23,430 nt of DNA from a virus. Taxonomy: Duplodnaviria > Heunggongvirae > Uroviricota > Caudoviricetes. The DNA is taken from positions 1-23,430 of IMG/VR virus record IMGVR_UViG_2671181100_000007, one strand, 5' to 3'. Positions 1-14,348 of the stretch are shown here, piece by piece (within the stretch, counting starts at the first letter, position 1; the number at the start of each line of letters is the position of its first letter). The translations under genes and the position numbers were made by a program. Below the pieces are notes generated by a model. The model was not told the DNA's origin, did no database searches, and was given only the letters and a program-made list of their open reading frames with translations.

Positions 1-933
1 ATGGACAACGACAAAATTGATCAACACAGCGACGAAATTGAAGTTGAGAGCGAAGAAAAAGAGCGCGGCAAAAAAATAGAAATAGATGAAGACCGACTCC
101 CCTCCCGGGCGATGGCAATTCATGAGCATATCCGCCAGGATGGTGAAAAAGAGCTGGAACGCGACGCAATGGCGCTACTGTGGTCAGCCATTGCGGCGGG
201 TCTGTCGATGGGCGCTTCGTTACTGGCAAAAGGGATATTTCATGTCGAACTGGAAGGTGTGCCGGGCAGCTTCTTACTGGAGAATCTCGGTTATACCTTT
301 GGTTTTATTATCGTCATAATGGCCCGCCAGCAATTATTTACCGAAAACACCGTGACTGCGGTACTACCCGTCATGCAAAAACCGACAATGAGCAACGTTG
401 GCTTACTTATGCGGTTATGGGGAGTCGTGCTGCTGGGTAATATTCTCGGGACTGGTATTGCTGCGTGGGCATTTGAATATATGCCTATCTTCAATGAAGA
501 AACTCGCGATGCATTTGTCAAAATCGGCATGGATGTGATGAAGAACACCCCCAGCGAGATGTTTGCCAACGCGATCATTTCCGGCTGGCTGATCGCCACT
601 ATGGTATGGATGTTTCCTGCAGCAGGTGCGGCAAAGATTGTGGTGATTATATTGATGACCTGGCTTATTGCCCTGGGTGACACCACCCATATCGTGGTCG
701 GTTCTGTTGAAATCCTCTATCTGGTGTTTAACGGTACGCTGCACTGGAGCGATTTCATCTGGCCCTTCGCACTACCTACTTTAGCGGGGAACATCTGCGG
801 CGGCACCTTTATCTTCGCGTTAATGAGTCATGCACAGATTCGTAACGACATGAGCAACAAGCGTAAAGCAGAAGCACGCCAAAAAGCAGAACGTGCGGAA
901 AACATTAAGAAAAATGATAAAAACCCGGCATAA
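1..933 (+). CDS. yfdC: Formate/nitrite transporter (FNT) family inner-membrane protein, YfdC-like; host gene flanking the island
   Basis: Complete 310-aa ORF from ATG at nt 1 to TAA at 931-933; several hydrophobic helical stretches; translation matches my recollection of E. coli YfdC; composition looks like core enterobacterial DNA. Confidence 0.85.
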   Translation: MDNDKIDQHSDEIEVESEEKERGKKIEIDEDRLPSRAMAIHEHIRQDGEKELERDAMALLWSAIAAGLSMGASLLAKGIFHVELEGVPGSFLLENLGYTFGFIIVIMARQQLFTENTVTAVLPVMQKPTMSNVGLLMRLWGVVLLGNILGTGIAAWAFEYMPIFNEETRDAFVKIGMDVMKNTPSEMFANAIISGWLIATMVWMFPAAGAAKIVVIILMTWLIALGDTTHIVVGSVEILYLVFNGTLHWSDFIWPFALPTLAGNICGGTFIFALMSHAQIRNDMSNKRKAEARQKAERAENIKKNDKNPA

Positions 934-1125: not shown

Positions 1126-1518
1126 TTATATGACAGGGCATTCGTCATCAGTAGGCCAAGCTCGATTGATGACGAATGTCACCACCCCGACAACTGTAAC
1201 ATCATCCAAAGCCTCGCCTTCCAGAGCCTCACCGTCTCTTGTAATGAATGCCCGGCCCATAATTTTTGCAAAATCAGTGCCGCCGCCGTATTGAATTAAA
1301 ACGGTATCTCCTTGCTTTGGTTTACCGGAGACATCGACTACGGTGTAACCAGTTTCTGTCTGAACGAGCCTGGTATTTGGGCCGGTACCGCAGAGTTTAT
1401 CGACGGTCAGTCGTACTTCTACATAGTCTGCTGCTGGCGACGGAAATCCCACGTTATAGCCCTCCGTTCGGGTTGTATAACTGGAACGTGCGCTCATCGC
1501 CTTCCTGCGTTGAGACAT
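1126..1518 (-). CDS. UmuD/LexA-like S24 peptidase-fold protein, orphan (no umuC/polV gene downstream); start codon uncertain (ATG 1518 or 1497)
   Basis: 130-aa ORF with about 23 residues preceding GFPSPAADYVE, the hallmark block that follows the self-cleavage site in UmuD/LexA-family proteins. A Lys candidate is present (DFAKIM); the Ser nucleophile position appears to be Thr (TGYTV versus UmuD SGDSM). Confidence 0.5.
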   Translation of the reverse strand: MSQRRKAMSARSSYTTRTEGYNVGFPSPAADYVEVRLTVDKLCGTGPNTRLVQTETGYTVVDVSGKPKQGDTVLIQYGGGTDFAKIMGRAFITRDGEALEGEALDDVTVVGVVTFVINRAWPTDDECPVI

Positions 1519-1693
1519 CCCGGAATGTCGTCACATAGTGCTCTATCCACTGGTTAGCCTGGCGTGGCGACCAGTGCCAGTTAACTTTTGCGAGTTCCCG
1601 GATAAAACCGGACGTTGTCACGGTGCGGCGGCCATTAGGCTCAATGACCATTGCCTGACGCCAGGCTATTTCGATATCTGAGTTTCGCGGCAT
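1454..1693 (-). CDS. Hypothetical 79-aa protein, first ORF of the LexA-box-controlled cassette; overlaps the UmuD-like ORF by 65 nt in another frame (possible frameshifted single gene)
   Basis: ATG at 1693 preceded by a strong SD (AAGGAGGTG, 7-nt spacer); LexA box 2 nt upstream of the SD; no recognisable family. Confidence 0.5.
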   Translation of the reverse strand: MPRNSDIEIAWRQAMVIEPNGRRTVTTSGFIRELAKVNWHWSPRQANQWIEHYVTTFRDVSTQEGDERTFQLYNPNGGL

Positions 1694-1710
1694 AATTTCA
1701 CCTCCTTAAA

Positions 1711-1730
1711 TACTGTTTTTATATACAGTA
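1711..1730 (-). promoter_or_regulatory. LexA operator (SOS box) TACTGTTTTTATATACAGTA
   Basis: 20-bp palindrome with CTGT-N8-ACAG spacing, near-perfect to the E. coli LexA consensus TACTGTATATATATACAGTA; sits directly upstream of the RBS of the 1693 start and overlaps candidate -10 hexamers. Confidence 0.7.
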
Positions 1731-1802
1731 GATTTAATGAGGGATCTGATCAATACAGGTTACAGCTATCGATCAGACGCACCGACGCAACGCAATGATT
1801 TT

Positions 1803-1868
1803 AAGAGGCGGGCAGGTACTTGTAGGCTGTCTTCACCTTTCCCCTCATCACACTCCTGCTGACGATTG
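1803..1868. repeat. Decayed copy (D) of the serine-invertase 3'-terminal coding sequence; direct repeat of 4295-4365
   Basis: About 65 bp alignable to the invertase 3' end (GGTACTTGTAG..TGT.TTCAC); reverse strand translates ...VKTAYKYLPAS* versus invertase ...VKTIYKYLPAT*. Confidence 0.5.
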
Positions 1869-1903
1869 GACCTCCTTTCCTCATGGTGAAGTAGTAACCG
1901 CAT

Positions 1904-1932
1904 AAAAAAAGGCACCTATTAGGTGCCTTTTT
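1904..1932. terminator. Bidirectional rho-independent terminator
   Basis: A7 - GGCACCT ATT AGGTGCC - T5: perfect 7-bp GC-rich stem flanked by an A-run and a T-run. Confidence 0.7.
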
Positions 1933-2212
1933 AATATACTTTCTTAGCAACGAACCAAGAAAGCCCAAGCCTCGTAGCCATAATCATGCGCATCAAGGAC
2001 TTTTGCGGACTTCCCGCGAACCTTACGGTAGCGACAGAAGACCCAGCGGAATCCCTTCGGAGCCGCTTTTGAAACAACTGACTTTAAACCCATCCATAAA
2101 CACCTCCTTACCGAGAGAGATTTTTCCTTGAACCTACTCTCCCGAAGTGTTATGTTCGGGTTGCTTATAGAGAAGTTCACGGTGCGATGCCTCTTGGTAT
2201 CATCGCCTAGTT

Positions 2213-2250
2213 AAACCCTGATGGTTGGCGCCGTCAGGGTTTTACTTTTT
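2213..2250 (+). terminator. Intrinsic terminator hairpin (strong on plus strand, weak on minus strand just after the ImmA stop)
   Basis: AACCCTGA-N12-TCAGGGTT followed by TTTACTTTTTT on the plus strand. Confidence 0.5.
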
Positions 2251-2770
2251 TAATAACTGTTTTTGATAATCTGCTGCGTGTGCAGAAACCCCACACGCTT
2301 CAGCTATTTCTTCTACAGACATGCCTCTTAGTAGAGCTGCATGGCTGTAGGGGACGAGCAACTCTCCACTAAAGCACTTTGCCTGCCACTCGCTGCTTTC
2401 AAAAGCTCGAATTTCCACTCCTGGCTCAGCTCGAGCAAAAGCAATATTTTTATGCATTAGTAGATGTCCAATCTCATGAGCAACCGTCATACGATCACGC
2501 CCGTTTCCTTCATGAGCTCCCTCATAAACATCTTCACGAAGGATGATAAGCGAGTCCTGAGGCATAGTTAGCCCATGTGTCCCCCCCCATCTCCTTTTCA
2601 GAAGCTGTTTCAAACGAAAAGTTAGGTAAGATCTGCGGTAGTGCGAACTCCAGCATTTCAATTACGGGAAAATACAAATCATGTATTTTCAGCATCGAGC
2701 GTAATTTGCTTGTTAAACCACGCACCGCGTTGCGGCTTAAAGGTGGTACTCGATAATCTTGTCCGCTCAA
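2242..2770 (-). CDS. ImmA/IrrE-family zinc metallopeptidase (HEIGH motif), reading frame split at a C8/G8 homopolymer (2581-2588); intact only if the tract is 7 nt
   Basis: TTG start at 2770 with AGGAGG SD gives the N-terminal 78 codons; the C-terminal 139-codon ORF (2242-2661) contains TVAHEIGHLLMH (HExxH). The two frames join if one G is removed from the G8 run (minus-strand GAG ATG GGG GGG ACA CAT ... reads EMGGTHGLTMPQ). Confidence 0.7.
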
Positions 2771-2784
2771 ACAGAGCCTCCTAC

Positions 2785-3144
2785 TTATTGTTTTTTAGTT
2801 AACAATTCACGTAGACGTTTAAACTCATCATCACTTAATTCATCGAAATTACGTGCAAATGCCATCGCTACTTCACGAGCATTTTGATTCTTACCCGATA
2901 GATTAATCTCAACAGATTGTTGAGAATCACGCGCCGCTTTTGTTAACTCATCTCCTGCATGAACGCCTTCATTAGTGAAATAGCTAATGATACTTTTCAA
3001 TACAGGATCGGTTACAGCCCGCTTTCCTGTTTCAATTGCTGAGAGGTAAGACGAGGTCACGCCCATAGCATCAGCCATGCTTTTCAGCGTGACACCGACG
3101 TCTATACGTAATTTCCTTACTTTCTTACCAAACGGCGTTAACAT
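2785..3144 (-). CDS. XRE-family helix-turn-helix transcriptional regulator (ImmR-like partner of the metallopeptidase)
   Basis: 119 aa; N-terminal block VRKLRIDVGVTLKSMADAMGVTSSYLSAIETGKR fits the Cro/C1-type HTH pattern; ATG at 3144 with AGAGG SD; stop 12 nt upstream of the ImmA start (operon). Confidence 0.8.
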   Translation of the reverse strand: MLTPFGKKVRKLRIDVGVTLKSMADAMGVTSSYLSAIETGKRAVTDPVLKSIISYFTNEGVHAGDELTKAARDSQQSVEINLSGKNQNAREVAMAFARNFDELSDDEFKRLRELLTKKQ

Positions 3145-3520
3145 ATTTTTGCCTCTCTAATGTGCGTGAGAGTCAGGTACAACTCGACTCTGAGTGCAAG
3201 ATAACAAGCCGCAGATGAAAAATCAACTGATTTCTGTTAATTTTTGCATCGAGCTTTAGTTCATCAATGTAGACAGATGATAGTTCATATTGTTCTACTT
3301 AGCTTGCCAGAGAATGCTAAAAGTACTTGCGATATCCCATTACTCATTGATGTATATAGATACAAGTACCTTGCGACATCGGAAATGGAGCAGCTTCAGC
3401 GTTATGAAAGCTGCTCCACGGGATTTCTGGGGGCGTATAATCAAGGCTCTGAAGTTATAGCAAATTGCTCATCTGAGGGCTCTGGCATACAGTTCGCAGG
3501 TGAGCAAACTTAACCGGCTG

Positions 3521-3568
3521 GAAAATATTTATAAATCGTCTTCACCCCCTCCTATTACATCGGCTACC
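3521..3568. repeat. Decayed copy (A) of the invertase 3'-end sequence
   Basis: AAATCGTCTTCACCCC...ACATCGGC; reverse strand reads ..VADVIGGGEDDL*; about 80% identical to copy B. Confidence 0.5.
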
Positions 3569-3638
3569 GACCCAATGTTTTAACTGCTCAGACCAGAAAT
3601 ATCTGGAAGCTTTAGGCATCTTCTTGGAAGATAGATGA

Positions 3639-3712
3639 GCGCAAAGACGCACACAGCAATGATGTTATGTAGTATTTTCCCCTTGAGTGTGCCTGCTCAA
3701 GGGGATTTTTTA
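3639..3712 (+). repeat. IR2 left copy (~74 bp), inverted copy of 7724-7798; contains terminator hairpin 3678-3711 (TCCCCTTGAG-N8-CTCAAGGGGA + T6)
   Basis: Aligns base-for-base with the reverse complement of 7724-7798 with about 4 mismatches; hairpin followed by TTTTTT on the plus strand. Confidence 0.65.
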
Positions 3713-3728
3713 TCGCCGTATTGTACTG

Positions 3729-3780
3729 GCAAATATTAGTAAATCGTCTTCACCCCACGCCTGTCACATCGGCCACACGC
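3729..3780. repeat. Decayed copy (B) of the invertase 3'-end sequence, abutting the stop of the recombinase-like fragment
   Basis: CACGCCTGTCACATCGGCCAC matches the invertase 3' coding sequence CACGCCTGTCACATCAGCCAC; reverse strand reads ..VADVTGVG* and, one frame over, VKTIY*. Confidence 0.55.
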
Positions 3781-3794
3781 GGCTGGACAGGCGG

Positions 3795-4217
3795 TTAGTC
3801 CGGTATGTTTCTCGCGCTACTACTGCTTACGTTAACGTCTGGTAATGATCTAGCGGCGCGACGTAAAGCGGCGTTGAAAGCAATTATAGTGACCGGCCGG
3901 CGTTGGTACTTCACACGGTTAGAATGGCTCTGAAATAAAAAAACATCTTCTGGATAGCGTTCTCTTCTACGAGCAATGATCCCCTCCACTGGAGGGGTTG
4001 ATTCAACACGTAGCTCTTTCAGGTGATCCTGTTTTCGTATCAGTATCAAGCCATCATCAATATCATCATATCGAATACTCAGCAGCCTTCCAGCGCTTAA
4101 ACCTGTGTGAAAAATTAACGCCCACAAGTCTGCCCATGTATCCGAGATGGAAACAAGATTGCTGTTAATAGTTAAAAATTGTTCAAAACTTATTGTTTTC
4201 TTACCGTTCACGAACAA
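3795..4217 (-). pseudogene. Tyrosine-recombinase-like fragment (FimB/FimE/Xer-type catalytic-domain N-terminal half; lacks the HxxR and Tyr region); TTG start, no SD
   Basis: 140-aa ORF with HTGLSAGRLLSIRYDDIDDGLILIRKQ resembling the first conserved box of tyrosine recombinases (TGxRxSELxxLxxxDID); ends before any H-x-x-R ... Y motif. Confidence 0.4.
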
Positions 4218-4294
4218 ACCAAACTGTTTTCAAAGCTGAATGAATTGATTAAGCCAAACGTAACATATCAGGAAAAGTAGTGAAATCTTTGTCT

Positions 4295-4842
4295 TCAAGT
4301 CGCCGGGAGGTACTTGTAGATTGTTTTCACGTCCACGCCTGTCACATCAGCCACCTGCTGCCGGGTAGCGCCAGTACCCAACATCCTGCGGCATCGCTCC
4401 ACAACCTCAGTGGTCATTACCCGCCGGCGGCCACCAATACACCCTGCTCTCTCGCCGCCACCAGGCCTGCGCGGGTCCTCTCCACAATCAGCTCTCGTTC
4501 CATCTCTACCAGCGCGCTCATGACGTGGAAGAAGAAGCGGCCGGCGGCCGTGCTGGTATCGATGCTATCGGTCAGGCTTCGGAAATTTACCCCGCGGGCC
4601 TGCAGCTCCGAGACCAGAGTGATTAAGTCGCGCACGCTGCGCCCCAGCCGATCCCGTTTCCAGACCACCAGCACATCGCCCGGGCGGAGCCGCCGTAAGG
4701 CGCGCTTTAACCCTGGCCGCCGGGCATTTTTCCCGCTGGCCATATCCTCAAAAACCAGCTCACATTCTGCGCGGAGCAGCGCGTTTTTCTGTAAATCGAG
4801 GTTTTGATCCCCGGTGGATACCCTCGCATAGCCAATCAGCAC
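4295..4842 (-). CDS. Serine DNA invertase (Gin/Pin/Hin/Cin family); frameshifted near 4436-4440 (catalytic domain ORF 4417-4842; C-terminal HTH continues in another frame to TGA at 4295-4297)
   Basis: GTG start with AGGAG SD; MLIGYARVSTGDQNLDLQ...VVWKRDRLGRS...SLTDSIDTSTAAGRFFFHVMSALVEMEREL is near-collinear with Mu Gin as recalled, including the catalytic Ser in RVSTGDQ. The shifted frame after codon ~135 reads IGGRRRVMTTEVVERCRRMLGTGATRQQVADVTGVDVKTIYKYLPAT (HTH domain). Confidence 0.85.
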
Positions 4843-4885: not shown

Positions 4886-4939
4886 TTCGCTCAAACCCTC
4901 GTTTGAGCGAACGCCTTTTTTGGAGCAAAAAACATGGCC
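4886..4939. repeat. Left inverted repeat (54 bp) containing a 26-bp gix/hix-like crossover site TTCGCTCAAACC-CT-CGTTTGAGCGAA (4886-4911), plus the RBS and ATGGCC start of the SGNH tail-fibre gene
   Basis: 53/54 identical to the reverse complement of 11198-11251; site has the Hin/Gin-type architecture (12-bp imperfect inverted half-sites with AAACC/GGTTT cores around a 2-bp centre). Confidence 0.75.
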
Positions 4940-6880
4940 TTTAACCCGGAGCTGGGGAGCACGTCTCCCGCTGTGTTGCTCGATAACGCCGAGCGCCTGG
5001 ATAAGCTGGTCAATGGGGATGCGGCCACCGTTCCCGACCGGGCCGGACAACCGCTGGACTCCTGGCGTCTTATGCTGCAGACCTTCGCTGCTGTTGTCGA
5101 AAATACCCGCCAGAACCTGATCCCACTTGGCAAGCAATACCAGAGTGTGGAAGAGGCTCAGGCTGATATTGCCAGTATTCCAGAAGGTGCCACCACCTAT
5201 GCACGCAGTCCGGATGATTCTGCTCTGGCGATCGAATACCGAAATGTCTCCGGGACGCTGACGGAAACCGGGCGCAGGATGCCATCACAGAGCTCTGTCG
5301 ACGCAGTTATCCAGTTTATCGATGAGTTTATTGCCAGTGGGGCTGTCAGTGGTGACTTCTTCCCTTTCTTTGTCGATGGGGCCGGGAACGTGCCTGTGTA
5401 CTGGGATAACGGTTTTGCGGTTTCCCGGATTGCCGCATCGTTGTATCAGATGATCTATGAGGATGTTCATGCGCGGCTGGGGGATGCGTTGAATGTGCAG
5501 GTAACAGGGGTTTCCCCTCTGTTTTTCCCGTTATTCATGGACAGCGCCGGCAATGTACCGGTGTACTGGAATGGTGGGCTGGATGCGTCGGCAATTGCGA
5601 CGGGGCTGCTGGAAAAAATATGGGCTTATATCAACGATATCATCGCCAGCGCGCTTAACCAGAATGTCCCTCTGGTTTCCCCTGGTTTTGTACCAGGGAT
5701 GATGGATGCCGCCGGAAACGTCCCGTTCTGGTTCCAGGATGGCGAGCTTGATGCGACGGGCATCGGGCCAAACATCAGGGGAATTTTTGCAAGATGGTAT
5801 CAGCGGCGTATGTACACCGCTGCTTACAACATTCCTCTGCATACCGACGGGCGAACTCTGTGGCGCTGGAAAGCGAAGAAAGCTCAGCTCAAAGCTGGCC
5901 TTGCAACCCGGCCACACTTCATGCTGACGGGTGACAGCTGGACGCAGAATAACGAACTGGCGACCGCTATCGCCGGGCTGCTGCATGATGATTATGGTGA
6001 TGCCGGTCTTGGCTGGCGCACGGTTAACTACGGAGCGGCACGCGATGGCTCGAATATCAACCGCTCTGCAGGGTGGAATTTGTATGACTCATCGCCGACA
6101 AGTGGTGCGCCGCTGTACGGCTGCGGAATTGATGGTCAGTCAGTCAATACGACCATGGCGACCGACTATTTCAGGGTGACGAATGTCCGCTGCACGGACT
6201 ACCGTATTTACTACCAGGATTTGAACGGGCGTTTCCAGTACGGCTACGACGCTGGCGGGATCACTCAGTGGACAGAGGTTGTCTGCGGGAATACCGGCAC
6301 GACAAAATCGGTGTTGCTGACAGGCATGGCCGACGAGGTCAGAACCATATACATCAAAACCGATGGCAACACGGGGCGTGTCGCTATCCACGGGTTTTAT
6401 CTGTGGCGCAGCGGCGTTGCGGGGTGTGTGATGAGCAAGGCGGGGAATTCCGGGATTCTTGCCGATCAGTTCCTGCTGTTCTCCGACAAAATCGCAGAGT
6501 ACCTGAGCACAATGCAGCCTGACGTGATTGCGATTGTCATCGGGAATAACGATTACAGGATTTCTGAATCGACAGCCACATTCCGTACTGCTCTGCAAAC
6601 GTACATTGCTGCCTGTCGCGCCGTGCTCCCTGATGTGAGCTTTATTCTGATGGCACCACCCCGCACGAACGGAACAGCAATAACGCCCATCGTTGATTTC
6701 CGTGATGTCATGTACGACCTGTCACAGACGCTGAATGTCGAGTTTTTCAGCATCTATGACCTTTTCGACTCCTGGGCTGAAATGAACAGCCTCGGCTGCT
6801 TTCTCGATAACCTGCACCCGAATGCTACGGGCAGCAACCTGGTCGCAACGTCACTCTACAATGCACTGATTAAAGGCTAA
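4934..6880 (+). CDS. Tail fibre/tailspike protein (648 aa): shared N-terminal anchor domain, three tandem ~55-aa repeats, C-terminal SGNH/GDSL hydrolase (esterase) domain
   Basis: N-terminal ~115 aa homologous to the N-terminus of the 1113-aa fibre. Repeats FPFFVDGAGNVPVYWDNG / FPLFMDSAGNVPVYWNGG / VPGMMDAAGNVPFWFQDG. SGNH blocks: MLTGDSWTQ (GDS), VIGNNDY (GxND), DNLHPN (DxxH). Confidence 0.8.
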   Translation: MAFNPELGSTSPAVLLDNAERLDKLVNGDAATVPDRAGQPLDSWRLMLQTFAAVVENTRQNLIPLGKQYQSVEEAQADIASIPEGATTYARSPDDSALAIEYRNVSGTLTETGRRMPSQSSVDAVIQFIDEFIASGAVSGDFFPFFVDGAGNVPVYWDNGFAVSRIAASLYQMIYEDVHARLGDALNVQVTGVSPLFFPLFMDSAGNVPVYWNGGLDASAIATGLLEKIWAYINDIIASALNQNVPLVSPGFVPGMMDAAGNVPFWFQDGELDATGIGPNIRGIFARWYQRRMYTAAYNIPLHTDGRTLWRWKAKKAQLKAGLATRPHFMLTGDSWTQNNELATAIAGLLHDDYGDAGLGWRTVNYGAARDGSNINRSAGWNLYDSSPTSGAPLYGCGIDGQSVNTTMATDYFRVTNVRCTDYRIYYQDLNGRFQYGYDAGGITQWTEVVCGNTGTTKSVLLTGMADEVRTIYIKTDGNTGRVAIHGFYLWRSGVAGCVMSKAGNSGILADQFLLFSDKIAEYLSTMQPDVIAIVIGNNDYRISESTATFRTALQTYIAACRAVLPDVSFILMAPPRTNGTAITPIVDFRDVMYDLSQTLNVEFFSIYDLFDSWAEMNSLGCFLDNLHPNATGSNLVATSLYNALIKG

Positions 6881-6886
6881 TTTCTT

Positions 6887-7687
6887 ATGAACAATATCTA
6901 TATCCCAAAACTCGGTGACGTCGTAATTCCGGGAACTCATCCGAAAAAAGGGCATTTCATGCAGCCGGATTTACCTGTTATCGCAGGGTTGAAAGCGATG
7001 TACATCCACGGCGGAACCTTAGAGCTGAGCATGAGAAACCGTGCCGACAACACCGCTCCACTGACCAAAGTCGGTTCGCCATCGATCCAGGCTGATTTCG
7101 GGGCGGTCTGTAGTTTCGGTAACTGTTTTGATACCGGGAAAGTTTCTACCAAAAACCAGACCCATATCGTGATCTGTAAGCCGGTAAAACCAACGGCGGC
7201 TACCGAAACCCAGCAGGCCTTCATGATGGGTAACTACAGCTATTCCGGCTCACCGGCAGTGTATCGCGGCGACGGACTCGCTTTTCTGTTTTCCGGGCAA
7301 AGTCTTTACGGGGCCTTTGTAGAGGACAATAACGTCACGCCAACGAACATGATCAACTACTACAGCGCGGCATACGACACAACGAAGTGGGCCGCTTTTG
7401 TGGAGCTGGTTGATGGTGACAATGGGATTGCCAGGATTGCTGCCAGGCAGGGAGGACCGCTTAACTGGCAGAACTCGAAAGCGTTGGTCAACCGAACCGC
7501 TTATACCGACCGCACGATCCGGATAGGTTCGCATCATGCGCCCGCTGCATACCCTGCAGGCGCTGCCATTACGATGGGGATGGAGCTGATTTTCGAGACA
7601 GCGCTGACACAGGCGCAGGTTGCTTCCGTTCTCGACAGTATAAGTGCCTATCTCAGTTCGGCATGGGGAATTACCGATTTAGGTTAA
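6887..7687 (+). CDS. Hypothetical protein co-encoded 6 nt downstream of the SGNH fibre gene (possible fibre-associated accessory or second receptor-binding subunit)
   Basis: 266-aa ORF, same strand and cassette as the fibre gene; no recognisable catalytic motif; weak SD. Confidence 0.45.
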   Translation: MNNIYIPKLGDVVIPGTHPKKGHFMQPDLPVIAGLKAMYIHGGTLELSMRNRADNTAPLTKVGSPSIQADFGAVCSFGNCFDTGKVSTKNQTHIVICKPVKPTAATETQQAFMMGNYSYSGSPAVYRGDGLAFLFSGQSLYGAFVEDNNVTPTNMINYYSAAYDTTKWAAFVELVDGDNGIARIAARQGGPLNWQNSKALVNRTAYTDRTIRIGSHHAPAAYPAGAAITMGMELIFETALTQAQVASVLDSISAYLSSAWGITDLG

Positions 7688-7723
7688 ATATATACGTTAC
7701 TGATTACCAGACGGGCAGGTAGA

Positions 7724-7798
7724 GAAAAAATCCCCCTGAGCAGGCACACTCAGGGGGAAAGTACTGCATAACATCATTGCTGTGTGCGTCTTTGCGCG
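7724..7798 (-). repeat. IR2 right copy; contains minus-strand intrinsic terminator (hairpin 7731-7758, U-run from 7725-7730) downstream of the 1113-aa fibre gene
   Basis: TCCCCCTGAG-N8-CTCAGGGGGA with A6 on the plus strand (T6 on minus); about 74 bp inverted identity to 3639-3712. Confidence 0.65.
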
Positions 7799-7861
7799 CA
7801 GCATATTTTCAGAGAAAACCTCCATCGTTTCCAGATGTTTCTTACTATTTCAGACTGTGTA

Positions 7862-10800
7862 CTAACCCTGGTTGTAAAAAAGCCACAAATCAGACAACGT
7901 TGACGCCACAAAACTGATCTCTGACAGCGTGTCTCCCGCAGCATTCGTGCCGTCGAATCCAAAGAACCGTTTAGGGAAGCCAGGCTTTGGCCCGTACTGC
8001 GTTTTCAGTTTATCCAGCAGACTGCCCGCTGCCGATAACGCTGATGGCCGGTCTGAAAAAAACAGCGGCAGCAGCGCAAAGGTGATGGTATTGGCAGCAC
8101 CCCGGCGGCTTTCGGAAATGCAAAAATCCACCTCCTTAAACGCCCCCATTCCGCTGGTCGCGGACAGAATGAAATTAACCAGGTCAAAGGCCGGTTTACG
8201 GTCCAGCAGTCTGCAGGCTAACAGATAGTTGTTAACGGCATAGCTGGCGTAGTGCAGGTACATCGCCCGGCTCGGGTATTCCGTCGCTGCATCCTGCAGA
8301 ATTCCTTCCGCCTTCATAAACTGGTTACGGTCCGTCAGCAGCGCCTCAACAGCATTAAAGGCTGTCAGGTAATGCCCGCTGCTGTCCTGCCCGGTATAAA
8401 TCCCCAGCGCCAGCGCCCGCAGTCCCGTGGCATTGGCATTACTGGCACCAATCCCGGTGGCTGTGCCAGCAATCTGAATACCGCCGTTGGCGGCCCAGTA
8501 CGTATAGACGGCATCCGCCAGGCTTTTTATCCCCGCCTTCAGCTCGGTAATTTTGGCCGGGTCACCCGCCTTCACCGCCATTTTGTAGAGCCACTCGTAA
8601 CAGGGAATGCTCAGACGCGACTGAAACTGCAGCCCCCACCACCCGCCGGTATACGCGGCCCCCGGATTGATGATGGAGCCCTTATCCAGTGCCATGTAAT
8701 TTTTAAAGGTGGCGTACACCGTATCCAGATCACCGGTGCCATAACGGGCCAGCAGGAAAATGTCCGCCGGTACACAATAAAATGCCGGATATTCCAGTTT
8801 ACCTTCACCGTTGATGAATGGCATGCCACCGCCATATTGGCGGGCGTCTTCCGATTTCCACCACTCCACTGAACCGCGAATATGGCAGGCCATTTTTTCC
8901 AGCAGATCCTGACGGATAACGCCCGCATAACCACAGTCACCCGCAAATCCTACCGGGCGGTTAAGTGCCTGGCTGTTAATGAGGGCATTCGTGGCATTCG
9001 ACGCCGCCGCTGTCACACTGTTATCGCAGTCAATCCACAGCTCGTGTGTCCAGGTCCAGCCTTTTTTCACCGGCCAGTTCAGGAACGAATAATCGGTAAT
9101 ATTCGATGAACCATACCGCCATCCGGCATCAATGCGGGTGTACGCTGCCCCGTCGGGTACCAGCGCCGTACCGCGAACCGGACGGTTTGGCCCGTAGGTT
9201 GGCCCGTCCCGGTGAACGTCTCCGTTTGCATAGACCAGCGCCGCCGTAAAGCGTTTACCCGTTGTGGCATCGGTAAAGTAAGCCAGCGCACGGGAGGTGT
9301 CGTAGGTGTACACTCCGTCGTTAAGCAGAAGTCGGGAGTACACCCCGAACAGCACGCCAACGGGAATATCCTGCATCGCCGTATTCATGACACGGACAGA
9401 AACCTTCCCGTTTCTGAACAGACGGTACCGGACTGTTGCCATCAGGGCGCCCTCTGCCAGCGTGTTTCCGGCCCGGTTACGTACCGTCATTTCCAGCTCG
9501 GTAAAGACCGGCCCTGTGTTCACCAGCCGGATGGATGCCCCCAGAATAAGCCGCTCATCCACCGCCACCCCGGCAACCACCTGGCTGTAATAGCAGCCGT
9601 GTGTAATGTTATGAACAATACCCGCCGGGTCGGTAATGCTGGTCAGGGCAAATCCCTGCTGGCGTAAAAAGGTGTATTTGTACCCGCTGACCGTCACGCT
9701 GTAACCGTCGGCAGTCTTCACCAGCTGCGGCCAGGAGCCAGAGGCCAGATCAGTCCGGCGACGGTTCCAGGCTTTCACCTCGTAATACTTCTGCGCACCA
9801 CTGGACAGCGAATCCAGAATGAAAACAGACCCTGCCGCCAGGGAGCCATCCGCGTGATAGCTGATATTCGACTTCTGACGCGGGTTAACATGGATATCAT
9901 CAGCAAACTGGGCATCAAACGTATTACCGTCAGTATCTGTCACCAGCAGGGCATCGGAATCCGGGACGTCACCGGGTGAGAAACTGACCCTGATTTCTAC
10001 CGGATAATTAACGTACCCGGCTGAAAGGGTATTTTTGACGTCCGTACCTTTTCGCTGATAGTTACCCACCCGCACCGATCGCACCACTTTACGCCGCCAG
10101 ACGGCATAACTTCCTGCCGGAAGGACAGCCAGACCGGATGTGGTGAAGCCTTCAGTGCTGACGGTATAGTCACCGGCAGGCAACAGGGCTTTGAAATAAT
10201 CCTCAAACCCGGTCTGTGCGATAGTGGTATCGTACGCCGCATATCCGGCAAACAGGCAATCCGGAGCAATAGTTTTCAGGTAGTCTCCCACCGTGGCGGC
10301 AGTAAAGCCCGCAGCAGTCAGCTCTGCCAGGGTGACCACAAACTGAATGGCATTCGCAATTGCCGTACCCGAAATGGACTTCCTCGTCACCGACGTGACC
10401 AGTCCGGCCTGAGCGGGGGCGAATTTCCCGGTTAAGTCCAGCGCGATATAGTTTGAACCGGCCACCGGGACGCCGAAGCCAGCAGGCAGGTCATAGCGCA
10501 CCCGGACCAGCGTTGCGGTGGTTTCCAGAATGCCCACATACTTCAGGTCCCGGAACCGGAAGAGGCGATAGGCTGACCAGAATTTTCCCTGAGCGTACTG
10601 CGTCTTTGTTCCCGGCAGTACAAAGGCCATCACTTCAGAACCCGCTGAAGAAAATACCAGCCGACTGTAAACCGTGTTCACATCCGACGTTGTCGCCAGG
10701 GTACGCAGTTCAATTACTGAATCTTCCGGTAGCATCAGCGCAGGGTCGTCCAGCAGCTTTAACCCTGTCAGATCCTGGTAGTCGCCATATTGTCGCTTAA

Positions 10801-11203
10801 TACCTTCCCGGTCTGTCAGCGTCGCTGTATATGCCAGCCCCGCTTCAACCCCTTCCTGCGAGAGCATTTTCCGCCCCGTGGCCGTTAGTGTCCCTGCCAC
10901 GTTCATATACTCTGTAGCCAGCGCGCTGCCGTCCTGGCTGCGCACGTAGGTTGTGGCGTTCACAGGGATATTCGCGATATCTGCCTGCGCTGCCGTCAGG
11001 GTCATGTACTGCTTACTGAGCGGGATGATGTTCTGCCGAATTTCGTCATTCTTTGCCATCATCTGGCGCCAGGTATCGAGCGGTTCGCCTGCGCGGTCGT
11101 TAACCGTTCCGGCCGGACCGTTAACCAGCTCGTCAGCGCGCTTGACGTTATCCAGGAATATTTCAGGCGTCGTCGTTCCCAAAGGCGGGTTAAGTTCGGC
11201 CAT
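7862..11203 (-). CDS. Tail fibre/tailspike protein (1113 aa) with shared N-terminal anchor domain and large unassigned C-terminal region (candidate receptor-binding or polysaccharide-degrading domain); the cassette currently in the expressed orientation
   Basis: ATGGCC start inside the right IR, 23 bp after the gix-like site; same strand as the upstream tail operon; N-terminal ~115 aa homologous to the 4934 ORF. Confidence 0.8.
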   Translation of the reverse strand: MAELNPPLGTTTPEIFLDNVKRADELVNGPAGTVNDRAGEPLDTWRQMMAKNDEIRQNIIPLSKQYMTLTAAQADIANIPVNATTYVRSQDGSALATEYMNVAGTLTATGRKMLSQEGVEAGLAYTATLTDREGIKRQYGDYQDLTGLKLLDDPALMLPEDSVIELRTLATTSDVNTVYSRLVFSSAGSEVMAFVLPGTKTQYAQGKFWSAYRLFRFRDLKYVGILETTATLVRVRYDLPAGFGVPVAGSNYIALDLTGKFAPAQAGLVTSVTRKSISGTAIANAIQFVVTLAELTAAGFTAATVGDYLKTIAPDCLFAGYAAYDTTIAQTGFEDYFKALLPAGDYTVSTEGFTTSGLAVLPAGSYAVWRRKVVRSVRVGNYQRKGTDVKNTLSAGYVNYPVEIRVSFSPGDVPDSDALLVTDTDGNTFDAQFADDIHVNPRQKSNISYHADGSLAAGSVFILDSLSSGAQKYYEVKAWNRRRTDLASGSWPQLVKTADGYSVTVSGYKYTFLRQQGFALTSITDPAGIVHNITHGCYYSQVVAGVAVDERLILGASIRLVNTGPVFTELEMTVRNRAGNTLAEGALMATVRYRLFRNGKVSVRVMNTAMQDIPVGVLFGVYSRLLLNDGVYTYDTSRALAYFTDATTGKRFTAALVYANGDVHRDGPTYGPNRPVRGTALVPDGAAYTRIDAGWRYGSSNITDYSFLNWPVKKGWTWTHELWIDCDNSVTAAASNATNALINSQALNRPVGFAGDCGYAGVIRQDLLEKMACHIRGSVEWWKSEDARQYGGGMPFINGEGKLEYPAFYCVPADIFLLARYGTGDLDTVYATFKNYMALDKGSIINPGAAYTGGWWGLQFQSRLSIPCYEWLYKMAVKAGDPAKITELKAGIKSLADAVYTYWAANGGIQIAGTATGIGASNANATGLRALALGIYTGQDSSGHYLTAFNAVEALLTDRNQFMKAEGILQDAATEYPSRAMYLHYASYAVNNYLLACRLLDRKPAFDLVNFILSATSGMGAFKEVDFCISESRRGAANTITFALLPLFFSDRPSALSAAGSLLDKLKTQYGPKPGFPKRFFGFDGTNAAGDTLSEISFVASTLSDLWLFYNQG

Positions 11204-11251
11204 GTTTTTTGCTCCAAAAAAGGCGTTCGCCCAAACGAGGGTTTGAGCGAA
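11198..11251. repeat. Right inverted repeat (54 bp) containing gix/hix-like site (11226-11251; minus strand TTCGCTCAAACC-CT-CGTTTGGGCGAA)
   Basis: Inverted copy of 4886-4939 with one mismatch; lies between the J-like gene stop (11280) and the fibre start (11203). Confidence 0.75.
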
Positions 11252-11279: not shown

Positions 11280-14200
11280 TTAAGCAGCGTCGCCGGGGTA
11301 TGTGGCGTCGTCGTACTGGTAGAACGATTCGAGGTATTCTTTAGCGGTGACCTGGCATGTTCCGTCAGACTGCGGGGCGATCTCCTCTACAATGGCGTCG
11401 TAGACGTGGCGCGTTGATCCGCAGAACACCAGGCGGATCGGCTCGATGGTTGCCGACGACAGGTCAACCTTCATCGGGTCATCAAACTCGCTCAGGTGCG
11501 GGACTGACAGCTGAAAATCGCCTACCCTGCTCGCCACCATCAGCCCGGATGCAGAACCATCCTGATAGCGGATCAGCGCGCGGGGATTTTCGAAAGACCA
11601 GTCCAGCGGCTCCGTAACGGTGAACGTTGTCACGCCACCAGCCGTTGTCATCGCCTCCACCAGACAGGAAATCGTGTTGTTACCCGGAATATCATCCGTG
11701 AGCACAATGCGATCGCCCAAGTTGTAGCACAGCGCGTCCAGCTCGGTAGTGGTCTGGAACGTCACCCGCTGCTGCAGGTATTTCATCAGGCGACGCATGC
11801 CGAGCTGGTAGGCGTGATCCTGATTCAGTACCCCATCGAGTTTGTAGTTTTCGATTTTCACTGGCGTTGGATTGTCCGACGTCCGGCATTTAACGGTCTC
11901 CTCTGCCCAGGTGACGCCGTTGATGTACGTCACGTCGACGCCATCAAAATCATCGTCAGACGGTACGATAAATCCGCTTTGCAGCTCCTCCACCATCTCA
12001 TGCGGAGTGATCACGCCAGTCCAGGGCTTAATCCCCTCACGGTTGACCGTCGCCAGGCCATCGCTCAACAGGAAGCGGGACTTCCCGGCATTGGCTATCT
12101 TCTGCAGCATTTCCAGCGCTGAGATACTGTCGCCGGTAGCGAAATCGAAATACTCTCCCCGTGGCGTCCAGTACGCAGACTCCAGCGCGTTGATGGTGTC
12201 GGCATCCATCTCCAGTCCCAGCGAGTTCCCGACATGCAGCAGCGCCCCAGAAATGGTTCTGGCCGTTCCTGAGTCATAGGCCCGCGTGGCCACCACGTTT
12301 ACGCGGCGGTCCGACTGAGCCGCCAATTTGCCCCCCGTCTCAACGGTCACCGCCATCAGCGACACGCCGGGATAGGATGAAGGGCGCGTCAGCAGTCGCC
12401 CGCGCAGTGCCTGCCAGTACATCGAATCCCTGGCGTTGTTTGAGCCCTGCTCATTGCGCCGGCGACAGCGAACCTCTACCAGCCCTGGTGAGCTGAGGGT
12501 GATCCGCTCAGTGAATCCCAGCCCGTTGACGTTTTTAAGCGCATACTCTCCCTGGTGACTCACCCACCCCGATCCGGAACCGTAGACGCGATACTGAATC
12601 TCCCACTCCACGTGGCGGATCCGTTTTTTGCCCTTACTGTCAAAGCCACAGATGCCGTTCGGGAAGGAGAAATTCACCTCGAATGCATCCACCACTTCAT
12701 TCTCAGGGCAAACCAGGAACGGCCCCAGCCAGCTCAGCGTGTCGTTAAGACCAGTGGCCTCATAGTCGATCATCGTCCGGGCGGAGAATCCCGGCCATGA
12801 CTCATCAACGGCACCGGAAACCAGGCGCACCACCGTCGCCGTCGTGCCGTCAGCTGACACAATCCGGTACTCATTCCCGCGGTGAGCAAGTGAAAGCCGT
12901 TGCACCCCCTCCGGCATCCCGGAGAATGCAGTGCCCGTGGCGCTGTTATAGGCAAGCGTCACATTCGCCGTTACCGCCGGGCTGCCGCCGGTTGATGCCG
13001 TGCCGGAGGTGTAAACCGGAGCATCACCGAAAACAGCTGCAGGCAGCGAAGAGGACGTGATCGCCCCACCCGCGAACGGACTGGCCGACTCGGTTATCAG
13101 TACGGTGCCGCCGTTGTCCTGTGCAACCAGGCCGGAGCCAGTGAGTCCCTCGGTGATGGCCGCCAGCAGTCCCGACATCGAGACATAGTTAGCCACCAGC
13201 GACACCGGGTAGGTAACCCCCTGCCAGGTGATCGTGAACGTGCTGGAGCTGGTCGAAAAATCGTAGGTGGTCGGGGCCGCACTGGCCTGGACTTTTGCCG
13301 CACTCCCCCCGGTGCCGGGCACTGCAGCCTGACCGGGGGTATATGACGCGATAAACAGATCGTAATCGACAGAGTTAAACCCCAGCGTCACCGGCATTCC
13401 AACCACCGGCGCGATCTCCGTCAGCAGCGGGCTGGCGATAACGCTGTATCCAGCCGCCGTGGTGATCTGGTAGTTCGCCGGGGCTTTCAGTTCGACCACG
13501 GCGCCAGCGACCCAACTGGGCGGCAGTGCGTTATCGTTCTCGTCATTATCGTCATCATCATCCGTATCCAGCCCGGTAAACGTTACGCTCGAACCGGATA
13601 CGGTCATGCTGTCTGCGATAATGTCGTCTGCGTCCGGCGACGTCTGGGCCATATCCAGCCCGGTGCCGGATGACGTCCCGCCCACTTCGGTGGAGTTGAC
13701 CCAGTTTTCGCTGCGCTCATCACCGGAAACGTCCGCGCCTGGCGGGTAATGGGTGCTGCTGAATCCCGGTAGCGTTGAAGCTGGCGTACTGCCAACCCGG
13801 ATATCGCCATTGGTATAAATCAGATCACCGACACCGAGACACAGCAGCATCTGGACGCGCATTTTCGTAGGATCGGCGGCATCAAACCGGGTAACGGGCT
13901 GCACGACATAATCCGGATAAATACGCACGCGCCCAAAAACTTCACGAATCGCATCACCCAGTTTCGCGCTGTTTCCTTTAGCGGGGTTCAGGTCGAGGCT
14001 TCGACCTGTGGATGACGTATAGCCGCCGGCATCAATGTTACTCATCATGAACAATGAATAAGCCGCAGATGCGACGGCAATGCCCACTCCTATCCAGGCA
14101 ATTGTCGCGGCCTCAAGCCCGAAAGGCACCGGATAAAGCCGGACATCACTATCAGGGTGGATCACGAAAATAGCCCATTCGCCTGGCGGAATTGACTGCC

Positions 14201-14348
14201 CCTCAACCTCAACGGTCAGCGGTGGGACATCCCGATCCTCGTAGCCTTCAACATTTGCCACCAGCCAGCTGCGAATACTGGTTACACCATGCTCATGCGT
14301 TTCGAGTGGTTCACCGGGAAGCCGGGACGGGTAAAAACGAATGGTCAT
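11280..14348 (-). CDS. Tail tip / host-specificity protein (J-like central fibre, 1022 aa)
   Basis: Large ORF at the distal end of the tail module, translationally coupled (ATGA overlap) to the NlpC/P60 gene; N-terminal hydrophobic segment; acidic run TDDDDDNDEND. Confidence 0.7.
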   Translation of the reverse strand: MTIRFYPSRLPGEPLETHEHGVTSIRSWLVANVEGYEDRDVPPLTVEVEGQSIPPGEWAIFVIHPDSDVRLYPVPFGLEAATIAWIGVGIAVASAAYSLFMMSNIDAGGYTSSTGRSLDLNPAKGNSAKLGDAIREVFGRVRIYPDYVVQPVTRFDAADPTKMRVQMLLCLGVGDLIYTNGDIRVGSTPASTLPGFSSTHYPPGADVSGDERSENWVNSTEVGGTSSGTGLDMAQTSPDADDIIADSMTVSGSSVTFTGLDTDDDDDNDENDNALPPSWVAGAVVELKAPANYQITTAAGYSVIASPLLTEIAPVVGMPVTLGFNSVDYDLFIASYTPGQAAVPGTGGSAAKVQASAAPTTYDFSTSSSTFTITWQGVTYPVSLVANYVSMSGLLAAITEGLTGSGLVAQDNGGTVLITESASPFAGGAITSSSLPAAVFGDAPVYTSGTASTGGSPAVTANVTLAYNSATGTAFSGMPEGVQRLSLAHRGNEYRIVSADGTTATVVRLVSGAVDESWPGFSARTMIDYEATGLNDTLSWLGPFLVCPENEVVDAFEVNFSFPNGICGFDSKGKKRIRHVEWEIQYRVYGSGSGWVSHQGEYALKNVNGLGFTERITLSSPGLVEVRCRRRNEQGSNNARDSMYWQALRGRLLTRPSSYPGVSLMAVTVETGGKLAAQSDRRVNVVATRAYDSGTARTISGALLHVGNSLGLEMDADTINALESAYWTPRGEYFDFATGDSISALEMLQKIANAGKSRFLLSDGLATVNREGIKPWTGVITPHEMVEELQSGFIVPSDDDFDGVDVTYINGVTWAEETVKCRTSDNPTPVKIENYKLDGVLNQDHAYQLGMRRLMKYLQQRVTFQTTTELDALCYNLGDRIVLTDDIPGNNTISCLVEAMTTAGGVTTFTVTEPLDWSFENPRALIRYQDGSASGLMVASRVGDFQLSVPHLSEFDDPMKVDLSSATIEPIRLVFCGSTRHVYDAIVEEIAPQSDGTCQVTAKEYLESFYQYDDATYPGDAA

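Follow-up and report, generated by a model that had tools for sequence, protein, structure and literature searches.

Displaced ends of a DNA invertase gene border the accessory cassettes at the tail-fibre end of a siphovirus-type prophage

The Locus

The stretch of DNA analysed here, called the window throughout, comprises the 23,430 nucleotides (nt) at positions 1 to 23,430 of the virus record IMGVR_UViG_2671181100_000007 (Caudoviricetes). It starts in host DNA, the Escherichia coli gene yfdC, and its remainder is the tail-fibre end of a siphovirus-type prophage, the nearest relatives of which are prophages and phages of Klebsiella. Within this part lies the gene for a serine DNA invertase of the Hin/Gin/Pin type. 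The 3′ end of this gene is present four times in the window: once as the live end of the gene itself (copy C) and three more times, as copies B, A and D, at increasing distances downstream. The genes of the region are all on the minus strand and, in the coding orientation, their order is: a gpJ-like tail gene, the invertible tailspike segment, the invertase, an open reading frame (ORF) called ORF140 for its 140 amino acids (aa), a terminator module, a cassette with an XRE regulator and an ImmA peptidase, and an operon with a LexA box (Table 1).

Table 1. Features of the window, from the gpJ-like gene to the host flank
Feature	Position (nt)	Strand	Remarks
gpJ-like tail gene	11280-14348	-	
Invertible tailspike segment, 6.3 kb	4886-11251	.	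54-nt inverted repeats at 4886-4939 and 11198-11251, 98% identical
Serine DNA invertase, Hin/Gin/Pin type	4295-4842	-	Pfam Resolvase (E 7e-47), HTH_7; last ~70-90 nt (4295-4383) are copy C
Copy C, live gene end	4297-4383 (nhmmer)	-	59.2 bits, E 7e-18
Cassette 3	3795-4294	-	ORF140 plus 77-nt spacer (4218-4294)
ORF140	3795-4217	-	140 aa; predicted tyrosine-recombinase catalytic-domain fold; no C-terminal Tyr segment
Copy B	3725-3790 (nhmmer 3725-3780)	-	34.1 bits, E 5e-10; vestige of a B-type invertase 3′ end, still joined to the native downstream terminator module of that gene
Terminator module (cassette 2)	3572-3721	.	Hairpin terminator 3678-3705 (T-run on + strand) and flanks; terminator scan
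Copy A	3511-3568 (nhmmer 3511-3568)	-	33.1 bits, E 1e-9; vestige of an A-type invertase 3′ end; starts at GGTAGCC (-62); 1-nt deletion
Cassette 1	1868-3510	-	XRE, ImmA/M78, small ORF, hairpins
Hairpin after copy A	3457-3510		
XRE regulator	2785-3144	-	Pfam HTH_3
ImmA/M78 peptidase	2242-2770	-	Pfam Peptidase_M78; frameshifted
Terminator hairpins of cassette 1	1906-1932, 2213-2242		
Small basic ORF	1944-2096	-	phrog_33859; strong ribosome-binding site; after the XRE/ImmA pair
Copy D	1801-1867 (nhmmer 1801-1867)	-	29.8 bits, E 1e-8; oldest vestige; 5-nt deletion and many substitutions; lies where the invertase ends in cassette-free relatives
Left arm of prophage end	1126-1798	-	Constant flank beyond the array; PHROG UmuD-like, NCBIfam HumD
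LexA box TACTGTTTTTATATACAGTA	1711-1730		Perfect; read directly in the sequence; before the 79-aa ORF and the UmuD/HumD-like gene
79-aa ORF	1454-1693	-	
UmuD/HumD-like S24 protein	1126-1518	-	
Host flank	1-933		E. coli yfdC

Detection of the Copies

A preliminary description of the window, made from its letters, had reported four copies of the invertase 3′ end in the same orientation, and both a repeat search within the window and an nhmmer profile returned them at essentially the same coordinates, with the minus strand of the window as the coding strand. For the profile, the 3′-terminal 90 nt of the intact invertase genes of five cassette-free loci were used: L004, L005, L007, L008 and L009 (the prefix L denotes a locus used for comparison). 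Since only other, cassette-free genomes contributed to it, the profile is independent of the window and circularity is avoided. It gave exactly four matches in the window, all on the minus strand and scoring 30–59 bits; the fifth-best match had 4.3 bits and the best over 200 shuffled windows 12.7 bits. Chance similarity was ruled out by the independent profile together with the shuffles. The repeat search links 1800–1836, 3509–3545 and 4294–4330 (D, A and C), 3518–3548, 3726–3756 and 4303–4333 (A, B and C), and 3755–3786 with 4333–4364 (B and C).

The C-terminal peptides that had been read from the vestiges, each followed by a stop codon, were also correct: copy D ends in ...VKTAYKYLPAS, copy A in VADVIGGGEDDL and copy B in VADVTGVG. 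Copy B had been said to abut directly the stop of the neighbouring reading frame, which is a fair statement, as B begins 5–15 nt past the stop codon of ORF140 (3795–3797).

A Nested Series in Related Prophages

The origin of the copies can be read from the relatives. In L004, L005 and L007 (E. coli ES4, SX45 and Klebsiella phage Kpn_R1), an intact invertase of 182 aa ends exactly at the position of copy D and is followed by the same flank; positions 1301–1852 of the window are colinear with 2902–3453 of L004, the intact 182-aa invertase of which occupies 3402–3950. In L018 and L020, the intact invertase ends in the A sequence, after which come the same hairpin, the XRE/ImmA cassette, D and the flank. 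In a third group (L030, L056, L106, L123 and L103), the intact invertase ends in the B sequence (…YKYLPVQYGDKKSP), with its stop inside the terminator hairpin, and the terminator module and then A follow the B end. Finally, C is the end of the invertase in L024, in L026 and in the window, and downstream of it lie ORF140, B, the terminator module, A, the XRE cassette and D, in this order.

The relatives thus form a nested series, from L004 (D live) through L018 (A live) and L030 (B live) to the window (C live). For every vestige of the window, some relatives have an intact invertase gene that finishes in this sequence, with the same context after it, and, therefore, the vestiges are displaced former gene ends: each was once the live end of the gene, and was pushed downstream by a new end and a cassette in front of it.

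The preliminary description had proposed comparing related genomes for presence and absence of sequence bounded by the repeats, and such polymorphism was found, bounded exactly by the repeats. Among the loci there are those with no cassette (L004), with the XRE cassette only (L018), with the terminator module only (L101), with the terminator module and the XRE cassette (L030), and with ORF140 and the terminator module (L099, E. coli SCU-308 and E. coli HS), in addition to the window, which has all three. The cassettes occur in most combinations, and the breaks are always inside a copy. The XRE cassette is 99–100% identical across L018–L027, and loci that share it at this level differ in their content of ORF140 and terminator module. 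The commonest architecture is a block of three copies, C–ORF140–B–terminator module–A, which is present in more than 100 viral contigs.

Alleles, Junctions and Points of Exchange

The copies are not repeats of a single unit. Synonymous codons separate them into types (AAGTACCT versus AAATATTT); for example, the codons for the last three residues of YKYL are AAG TAC CTx in C and D and AAA TAT TTx in A and B. Furthermore, the native sequence that adjoins a copy downstream differs from one copy to the next. The different codon types, together with these separate downstream contexts, show that the copies come from different alleles of the invertase gene and not from one duplicated unit. The terminator module is found directly after the invertase in L030 and in L008–L012 (prophages of the Klebsiella michiganensis/oxytoca type). 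In the window, 3636–3714, between copies A and B, is an inverted copy (92% over 79 nt) of 7722–7800, which lies between the convergent tailspike genes, inside the invertible segment, and many related phages have the hairpin terminator module in both of these settings. The different alleles and these other placements of the module imply that the array was assembled from different phages.

To survey the junctions, 204 loci were gathered with two degenerate patterns, both of which describe the conserved distal portion of the unit, and the sample is biased by both patterns. Upstream of the truncated copies in these loci, only about four kinds of junction occur: terminator module to A (128 loci), ORF140 to B (124 loci, B following the ORF140 stop in every case), XRE cassette to D (four loci) and tailspike to C (three loci). 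Copies within one locus all point the same way, with the exception of one contig that holds two arrays. The small number of junction types and their wide spread indicate a few old founding joins, which were then propagated and re-assorted.

The positions of the exchanges between alleles vary. Invertase bodies that are 93–97% identical (L007, L018 and L026) bear three different tails, while bodies that are only 80% identical (L024 and L026) bear identical tails, and in both comparisons the switch from body to tail is about 72–62 nt before the stop. Other switches are closer to the stop (negative positions are counted from it): at about -45 in a vestige at the terminator module–A junction that has a type-I distal half; at about -35 in the copy after ORF140 in L014, which changes there to a distal part of the L004/L029 type; and at about -15 and -13 in A and D vestiges, which change to other flank alleles. 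The A vestiges also share polymorphisms with live A-type alleles, and the vestige of L019 is the same as the live end of L020. Variable exchange points and conversion by live alleles point to homologous exchange, rather than to a site-specific reaction with a fixed core.

The founding junctions cluster between -57 and -78: A starts at -62, B between about -57 and -78, and D at about -70, and the 5-nt deletion in D sits at the very motif where A starts. This clustering rests on three or four events, and can in part be attributed to a detection limit, because vestiges shorter than about 35 nt would be missed, and to the instability of repeats longer than about 80 nt. Longer remnants, of 159–456 nt, were found only where the invertase body has been destroyed (E. 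coli HS, L021, L023, L027 and L028), as would be expected if longer direct repeats were lost quickly by recombination with a live gene. For A and B, the flank of the donor (as in L008) and the invertase motif CAGGT(A/G)GCC plausibly share microhomology, at which the founding joins of these two copies may have been made.

The Recombinase-Like Gene

ORF140 had been described as a truncated tyrosine recombinase. It belongs to phrog_19751 and has remote similarity to the integrase family phrog_1; it has no match in Pfam or NCBIfam, and a search of PDB sequences with a profile of its family found nothing. A Foldseek search with its AlphaFold model (pLDDT, predicted local distance difference test, 82) had lambda Int, XerH and XerA as its top matches, in each case through the catalytic domain, with template modelling (TM) scores of 0.7–0.76, normalised to the query. 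In the family, Arg 44 is nearly invariant, and Lys 67 and Arg 136 are conserved. ORF140 extends only as far as the HxxR-box position (…SSSSAR), and has neither the C-terminus that would bear the Tyr nor the N-terminal DNA-binding domains. Lacking these, ORF140 cannot be the recombinase that made the array.

The homologues (P0001–P0120) form a widespread prophage family, in which all members, down to 60% identity, are 138–144 aa long, including those of L008–L012, where no repeat follows the gene. The constant length rules out a recently truncated integrase. An integrase catalytic fold is borne out by the predicted structure.

Surrounding Genes and Features

The invertible segment is the one served by the invertase. 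Each of its 54-nt inverted repeats holds a 26-bp crossover site (TTCGCTCAAACCCTCGTTTGAGCGAA), a ribosome-binding site and an ATG and, therefore, inversion swaps two complete tailspike genes behind the gpJ-like gene. The site matches in the window only at 4886–4911 and 11226–11251, and no half-site is in or near any copy. The two tailspike genes are convergent and encode products of 648 aa (SGNH/GDSL-type) and 1113 aa, which have 58% identity over their first ~125 aa only.

The invertase of the window is frameshifted by one missing base near 4441 (CAGGGT-GTATTGG; 4417–4445), and reads as 141 aa plus 40 aa. A tblastn search with the intact 182-aa invertase of L004 splits into two frames, and comparison at base level with L026 places the missing base. 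As sequenced, the invertase would have no DNA-binding domain, and the tailspike segment may be locked in one orientation; possibly, the missing base is a sequencing error. The invertase copy of E. coli SCU-308 is also annotated as a pseudogene.

In cassette 1, the XRE and ImmA pair has its best PADLOC match to the CapH/CapP regulator models (E 2e-9 and 2e-12). The 175-aa ORF of ImmA is split, as a run of eight G at 2581–2588 replaces the seven G of relatives; either the homopolymer was misread in sequencing or the tract is prone to slippage. On the strand opposite to XRE and ImmA, positions 2181–2247 match the P22 sar antisense RNA of Rfam below threshold, with a terminator at the end of the match. 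Together with the small ORF, the pair may be a small regulated toxin-like or defence module. All 10 places listed for the XRE cassette are in the context of this prophage, and it was not found outside that context; phage ST846-OXA48phi9.2 has an XRE/ImmA pair that is only 35–37% identical, elsewhere in its genome.

The left arm of the prophage end adjoins different host genes in different genomes. In the window, the yfdC flank has 99.5% identity to E. coli 184/2aE (L006) and 98% to the prophage record vB_EcoS-733R5 (L028). With a perfect LexA box ahead of the 79-aa ORF and the UmuD-like gene, the operon of the left arm is probably SOS-induced; L003 and L016 have a full umuDC at this position.

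In relatives (L013–L017, L028, L006, L016/L026 and L001), the prophage end is a general hotspot for cargo. An acyltransferase gene can take the place of the invertase and the tailspike switch, with a 62-nt invertase vestige remaining; a retron-type reverse transcriptase can substitute the invertase body, or lie in the flank without any invertase-end repeat; and there is an insertion of ISKox3. In E. coli SCU-308, a gene for a small membrane protein follows the A′ vestige.

Interpretation

The extra copies are probably the scars of a few old splice events, after which homologous recombination between the short direct repeats shuffled the cassettes. The region that has the tail-fibre invertase on one side and the umuD-like operon, probably under SOS control, on the other would serve as an accessory-gene region where, on a few occasions, DNA of another phage was spliced into the resident invertase gene some 60–75 nt before its stop. 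The incoming DNA would have begun with the 3′ end of the donor's own invertase gene and would have brought whatever lay downstream of it. In this way the invertase would have been kept intact with a new tail, and its old tail moved downstream as a short, untranslated vestige. In a first step, D would have been displaced by an A end with the XRE/ImmA cassette; in a second, A by a B end with the terminator module; and in a third, B by a C end with ORF140. The founding joins would probably have been illegitimate, of the microhomology type. Thereafter, the direct repeats of 60–75 nt and the live gene ends of related phages would have acted as portable homology, with which general or phage-encoded homologous recombination could add, remove and re-assort cassettes, a step that the comparative pattern shows. 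The copies would have no function of their own. Such a process has precedents: homology-driven, divergence-tolerant formation of mosaics has been shown experimentally in temperate phages (PMC3945230), and repeat-bounded shuffling of cassettes, with mini-circles, has been described in T4-type phages (PMC2839356).

Several observations weigh against the scar explanation. Three founding junctions lie within about 20 nt (-57 to -78), near CAGGT(A/G)GCC, which random illegitimate joining would not predict. Some copies have low identity (C versus A ~70%, with identical runs of at most 14 nt) and would be poor substrates for RecA, and any gene of the prophage for a Rad52-like recombinase would lie outside the window. 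Also, each step could have been a gain or a loss.

The first of these observations can be turned into an explanation. The segment from -60 to -75 might be a genuine recombination hotspot or cryptic attachment site, at which accessory and defence cassettes are loaded with preservation of the gene, and this is judged unlikely. Such a site could be recognised by a recombinase acting in trans or by the Tyr-less ORF140, in the role of an accessory factor, or could be stimulated by the Chi-like motif GCAGGTGG, which is present in some alleles.

Closely related is the first of the two explanations in the preliminary description, in which small integrating elements repeatedly use the invertase 3′ end as a true attachment site. 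Each element would bring a replacement gene end in its attP, as islands do at transfer RNA (tRNA) genes, and ORF140 would be the decayed integrase of one of them. Much of the layout resembles this: direct repeats flank each cassette, the incoming copy restores the gene, empty sites exist (L030, L018 and L004 being successively emptier), a gene with an integrase fold lies beside the gene-proximal repeat, and the founding junctions and the switch from body to tail cluster at -57 to -78. However, no functional integrase was found, as ORF140 is without the Tyr C-terminus and the N-terminal domains and has the same length in L008–L012, where there are no repeats; neither the XRE cassette nor the cassette of 150 nt, which consists of a terminator only, has a recombinase. 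Since exchange points range from -13 to -72, there is no fixed shared core; about four junction types in 204 loci, in a sample biased by its search patterns, do not suggest many independent elements; and there is no attC-like fold. The claim of a repeatedly used attachment site was not upheld, and such a site is improbable here. No tRNA is in the window, which might have provided an attachment site of the tRNA type. An integron cassette array was also rejected, because the fold z-scores reveal no attC-type palindromes and there is no IntI.

The other explanation offered at the outset was that the copies are remnants of invertase genes, left by serial duplication and deletion. In that case, tandem duplications of the invertase within one genome would have been followed by deletions that left the 3′ ends, in keeping with copies that are all direct and all from the invertase coding sequence. 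Serial duplication would yield near-identical copies and repeated flanks, whereas the copies are from different alleles, and the downstream context of each is found behind an intact invertase in other phages. Invertase-gene remnants they are, inasmuch as every one of them is a displaced gene end with an intact counterpart elsewhere, but their different alleles and separate downstream contexts make serial duplication a poor explanation, even less probable than an attachment site.

It is very improbable that the copies have been retained for a function, as a promoter, a terminator or a protein-binding site for the downstream cassettes. The conservation of the three-copy block in so many contigs, and one weak promoter-like match over the distal end of B, would fit such a role. 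However, promoter-like matches are no commoner than in shuffled sequence, and no promoter or terminator signal in the copies rises above background. Their DNA-fold z-scores range from -1.5 to +1.7, with neither an attC-like nor any other stable structure, and Rfam gave only sub-threshold matches in the window, none of them in the copies. Moreover, B is followed by a terminator only, and no conserved non-coding signature is seen in the vestiges, which have undergone frameshifts, deletions and allele swaps.

That the invertase itself made the rearrangements through cryptic crossover sites in its own 3′ end, an idea suggested by the use of quasi-sites by Din-family invertases (e.g., Cin of phage P1), is scarcely credible, because the 26-bp site and the 12-bp half-site are unmatched in or near the copies even at two to three mismatches, and because this family acts on inverted sites within one molecule and does not insert DNA.

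Significance and Comparison with Known Systems

The locus is an unusually legible case of temperate phages adding accessory genes beside a gene that is essential for function, which is left unbroken. Each of the four stages of the stack can still be found among different prophages of E. coli and Klebsiella, and the short scars then serve as handles for the swapping of cassettes. The window has a CapH/CapP-like regulator pair as its cargo, and relatives have reverse transcriptases and acyltransferases. With this series, one could gauge how much homology, and which recombinases, lie behind the gain and loss of cassettes in the variable regions of prophages. If the hotspot at -60 to -75 were real, the gene end would be a phage-borne platform for loading cassettes. 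A literature search returned no specific description of an array of invertase ends or of tailspike inversion in Klebsiella.

In layout, the array resembles the tandem accretion of integrative islands or prophages at the 3′ ends of tRNA and protein genes, where the 3′ end of the target is duplicated as attL and attR. There too, direct partial copies of the 3′ end accumulate, each incoming copy preserves the gene, the copy furthest from the gene is the oldest, and relatives have empty or partly filled sites. The present array differs in having neither a functional integrase nor a fixed crossover core, in that a terminator makes up the whole of one element, and in that the founding junctions are only a handful.

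The serine invertase itself, beside an invertible tail-fibre segment with 26-bp sites in inverted repeats, is analogous to Gin, Cin and Min with the G segment of Mu, the C segment of P1 and the Min system of p15B. The repeats discussed here, however, are direct, lie outside the invertible segment and are not crossover sites. Also, Mu and P1 switch C-terminal exons, whereas the switch here is between complete tailspike genes, each with a start codon of its own.

In its working, the array is like the shuffling by promoter early stem-loops (PeSLs) in T4-type phages (PMC2839356, PMC4122927), in which short repeats border non-essential cassettes in a hyperplastic region, and cassettes are gained, lost and replaced through recombination between the repeats. 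PeSLs are functional promoter and terminator units repeated throughout the genome (PMC2839356, PMC4122927), whereas the repeats here are non-functional vestiges of one coding sequence. Since they have no regulatory signal or stable fold, the array works like PeSL shuffling and yet is not made of PeSLs. Furthermore, PeSL shuffling, with its mini-circles, is known from T4-type phages, whereas the present case is a temperate siphovirus.

There is likewise a resemblance to the mosaicism produced by Rad52-like recombinases (PMC3945230), in which exchange takes place between diverged sequences, traces of homology are left at the borders of the mosaic, and new combinations of accessory (moron) regions arise among the prophages of E. 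coli and its relatives. That study describes allelic replacement (PMC3945230), whereas the exchange considered here is non-allelic, takes place between a vestige and a live end and leads to the gain or loss of cassettes; the recombinase of this prophage is not seen in the window. The array is a clear and well-populated case of a process of a known kind, and reveals no new mechanism: the process is the mosaic accretion of accessory genes, together with the shuffling of those genes by way of the scars that accretion leaves behind.

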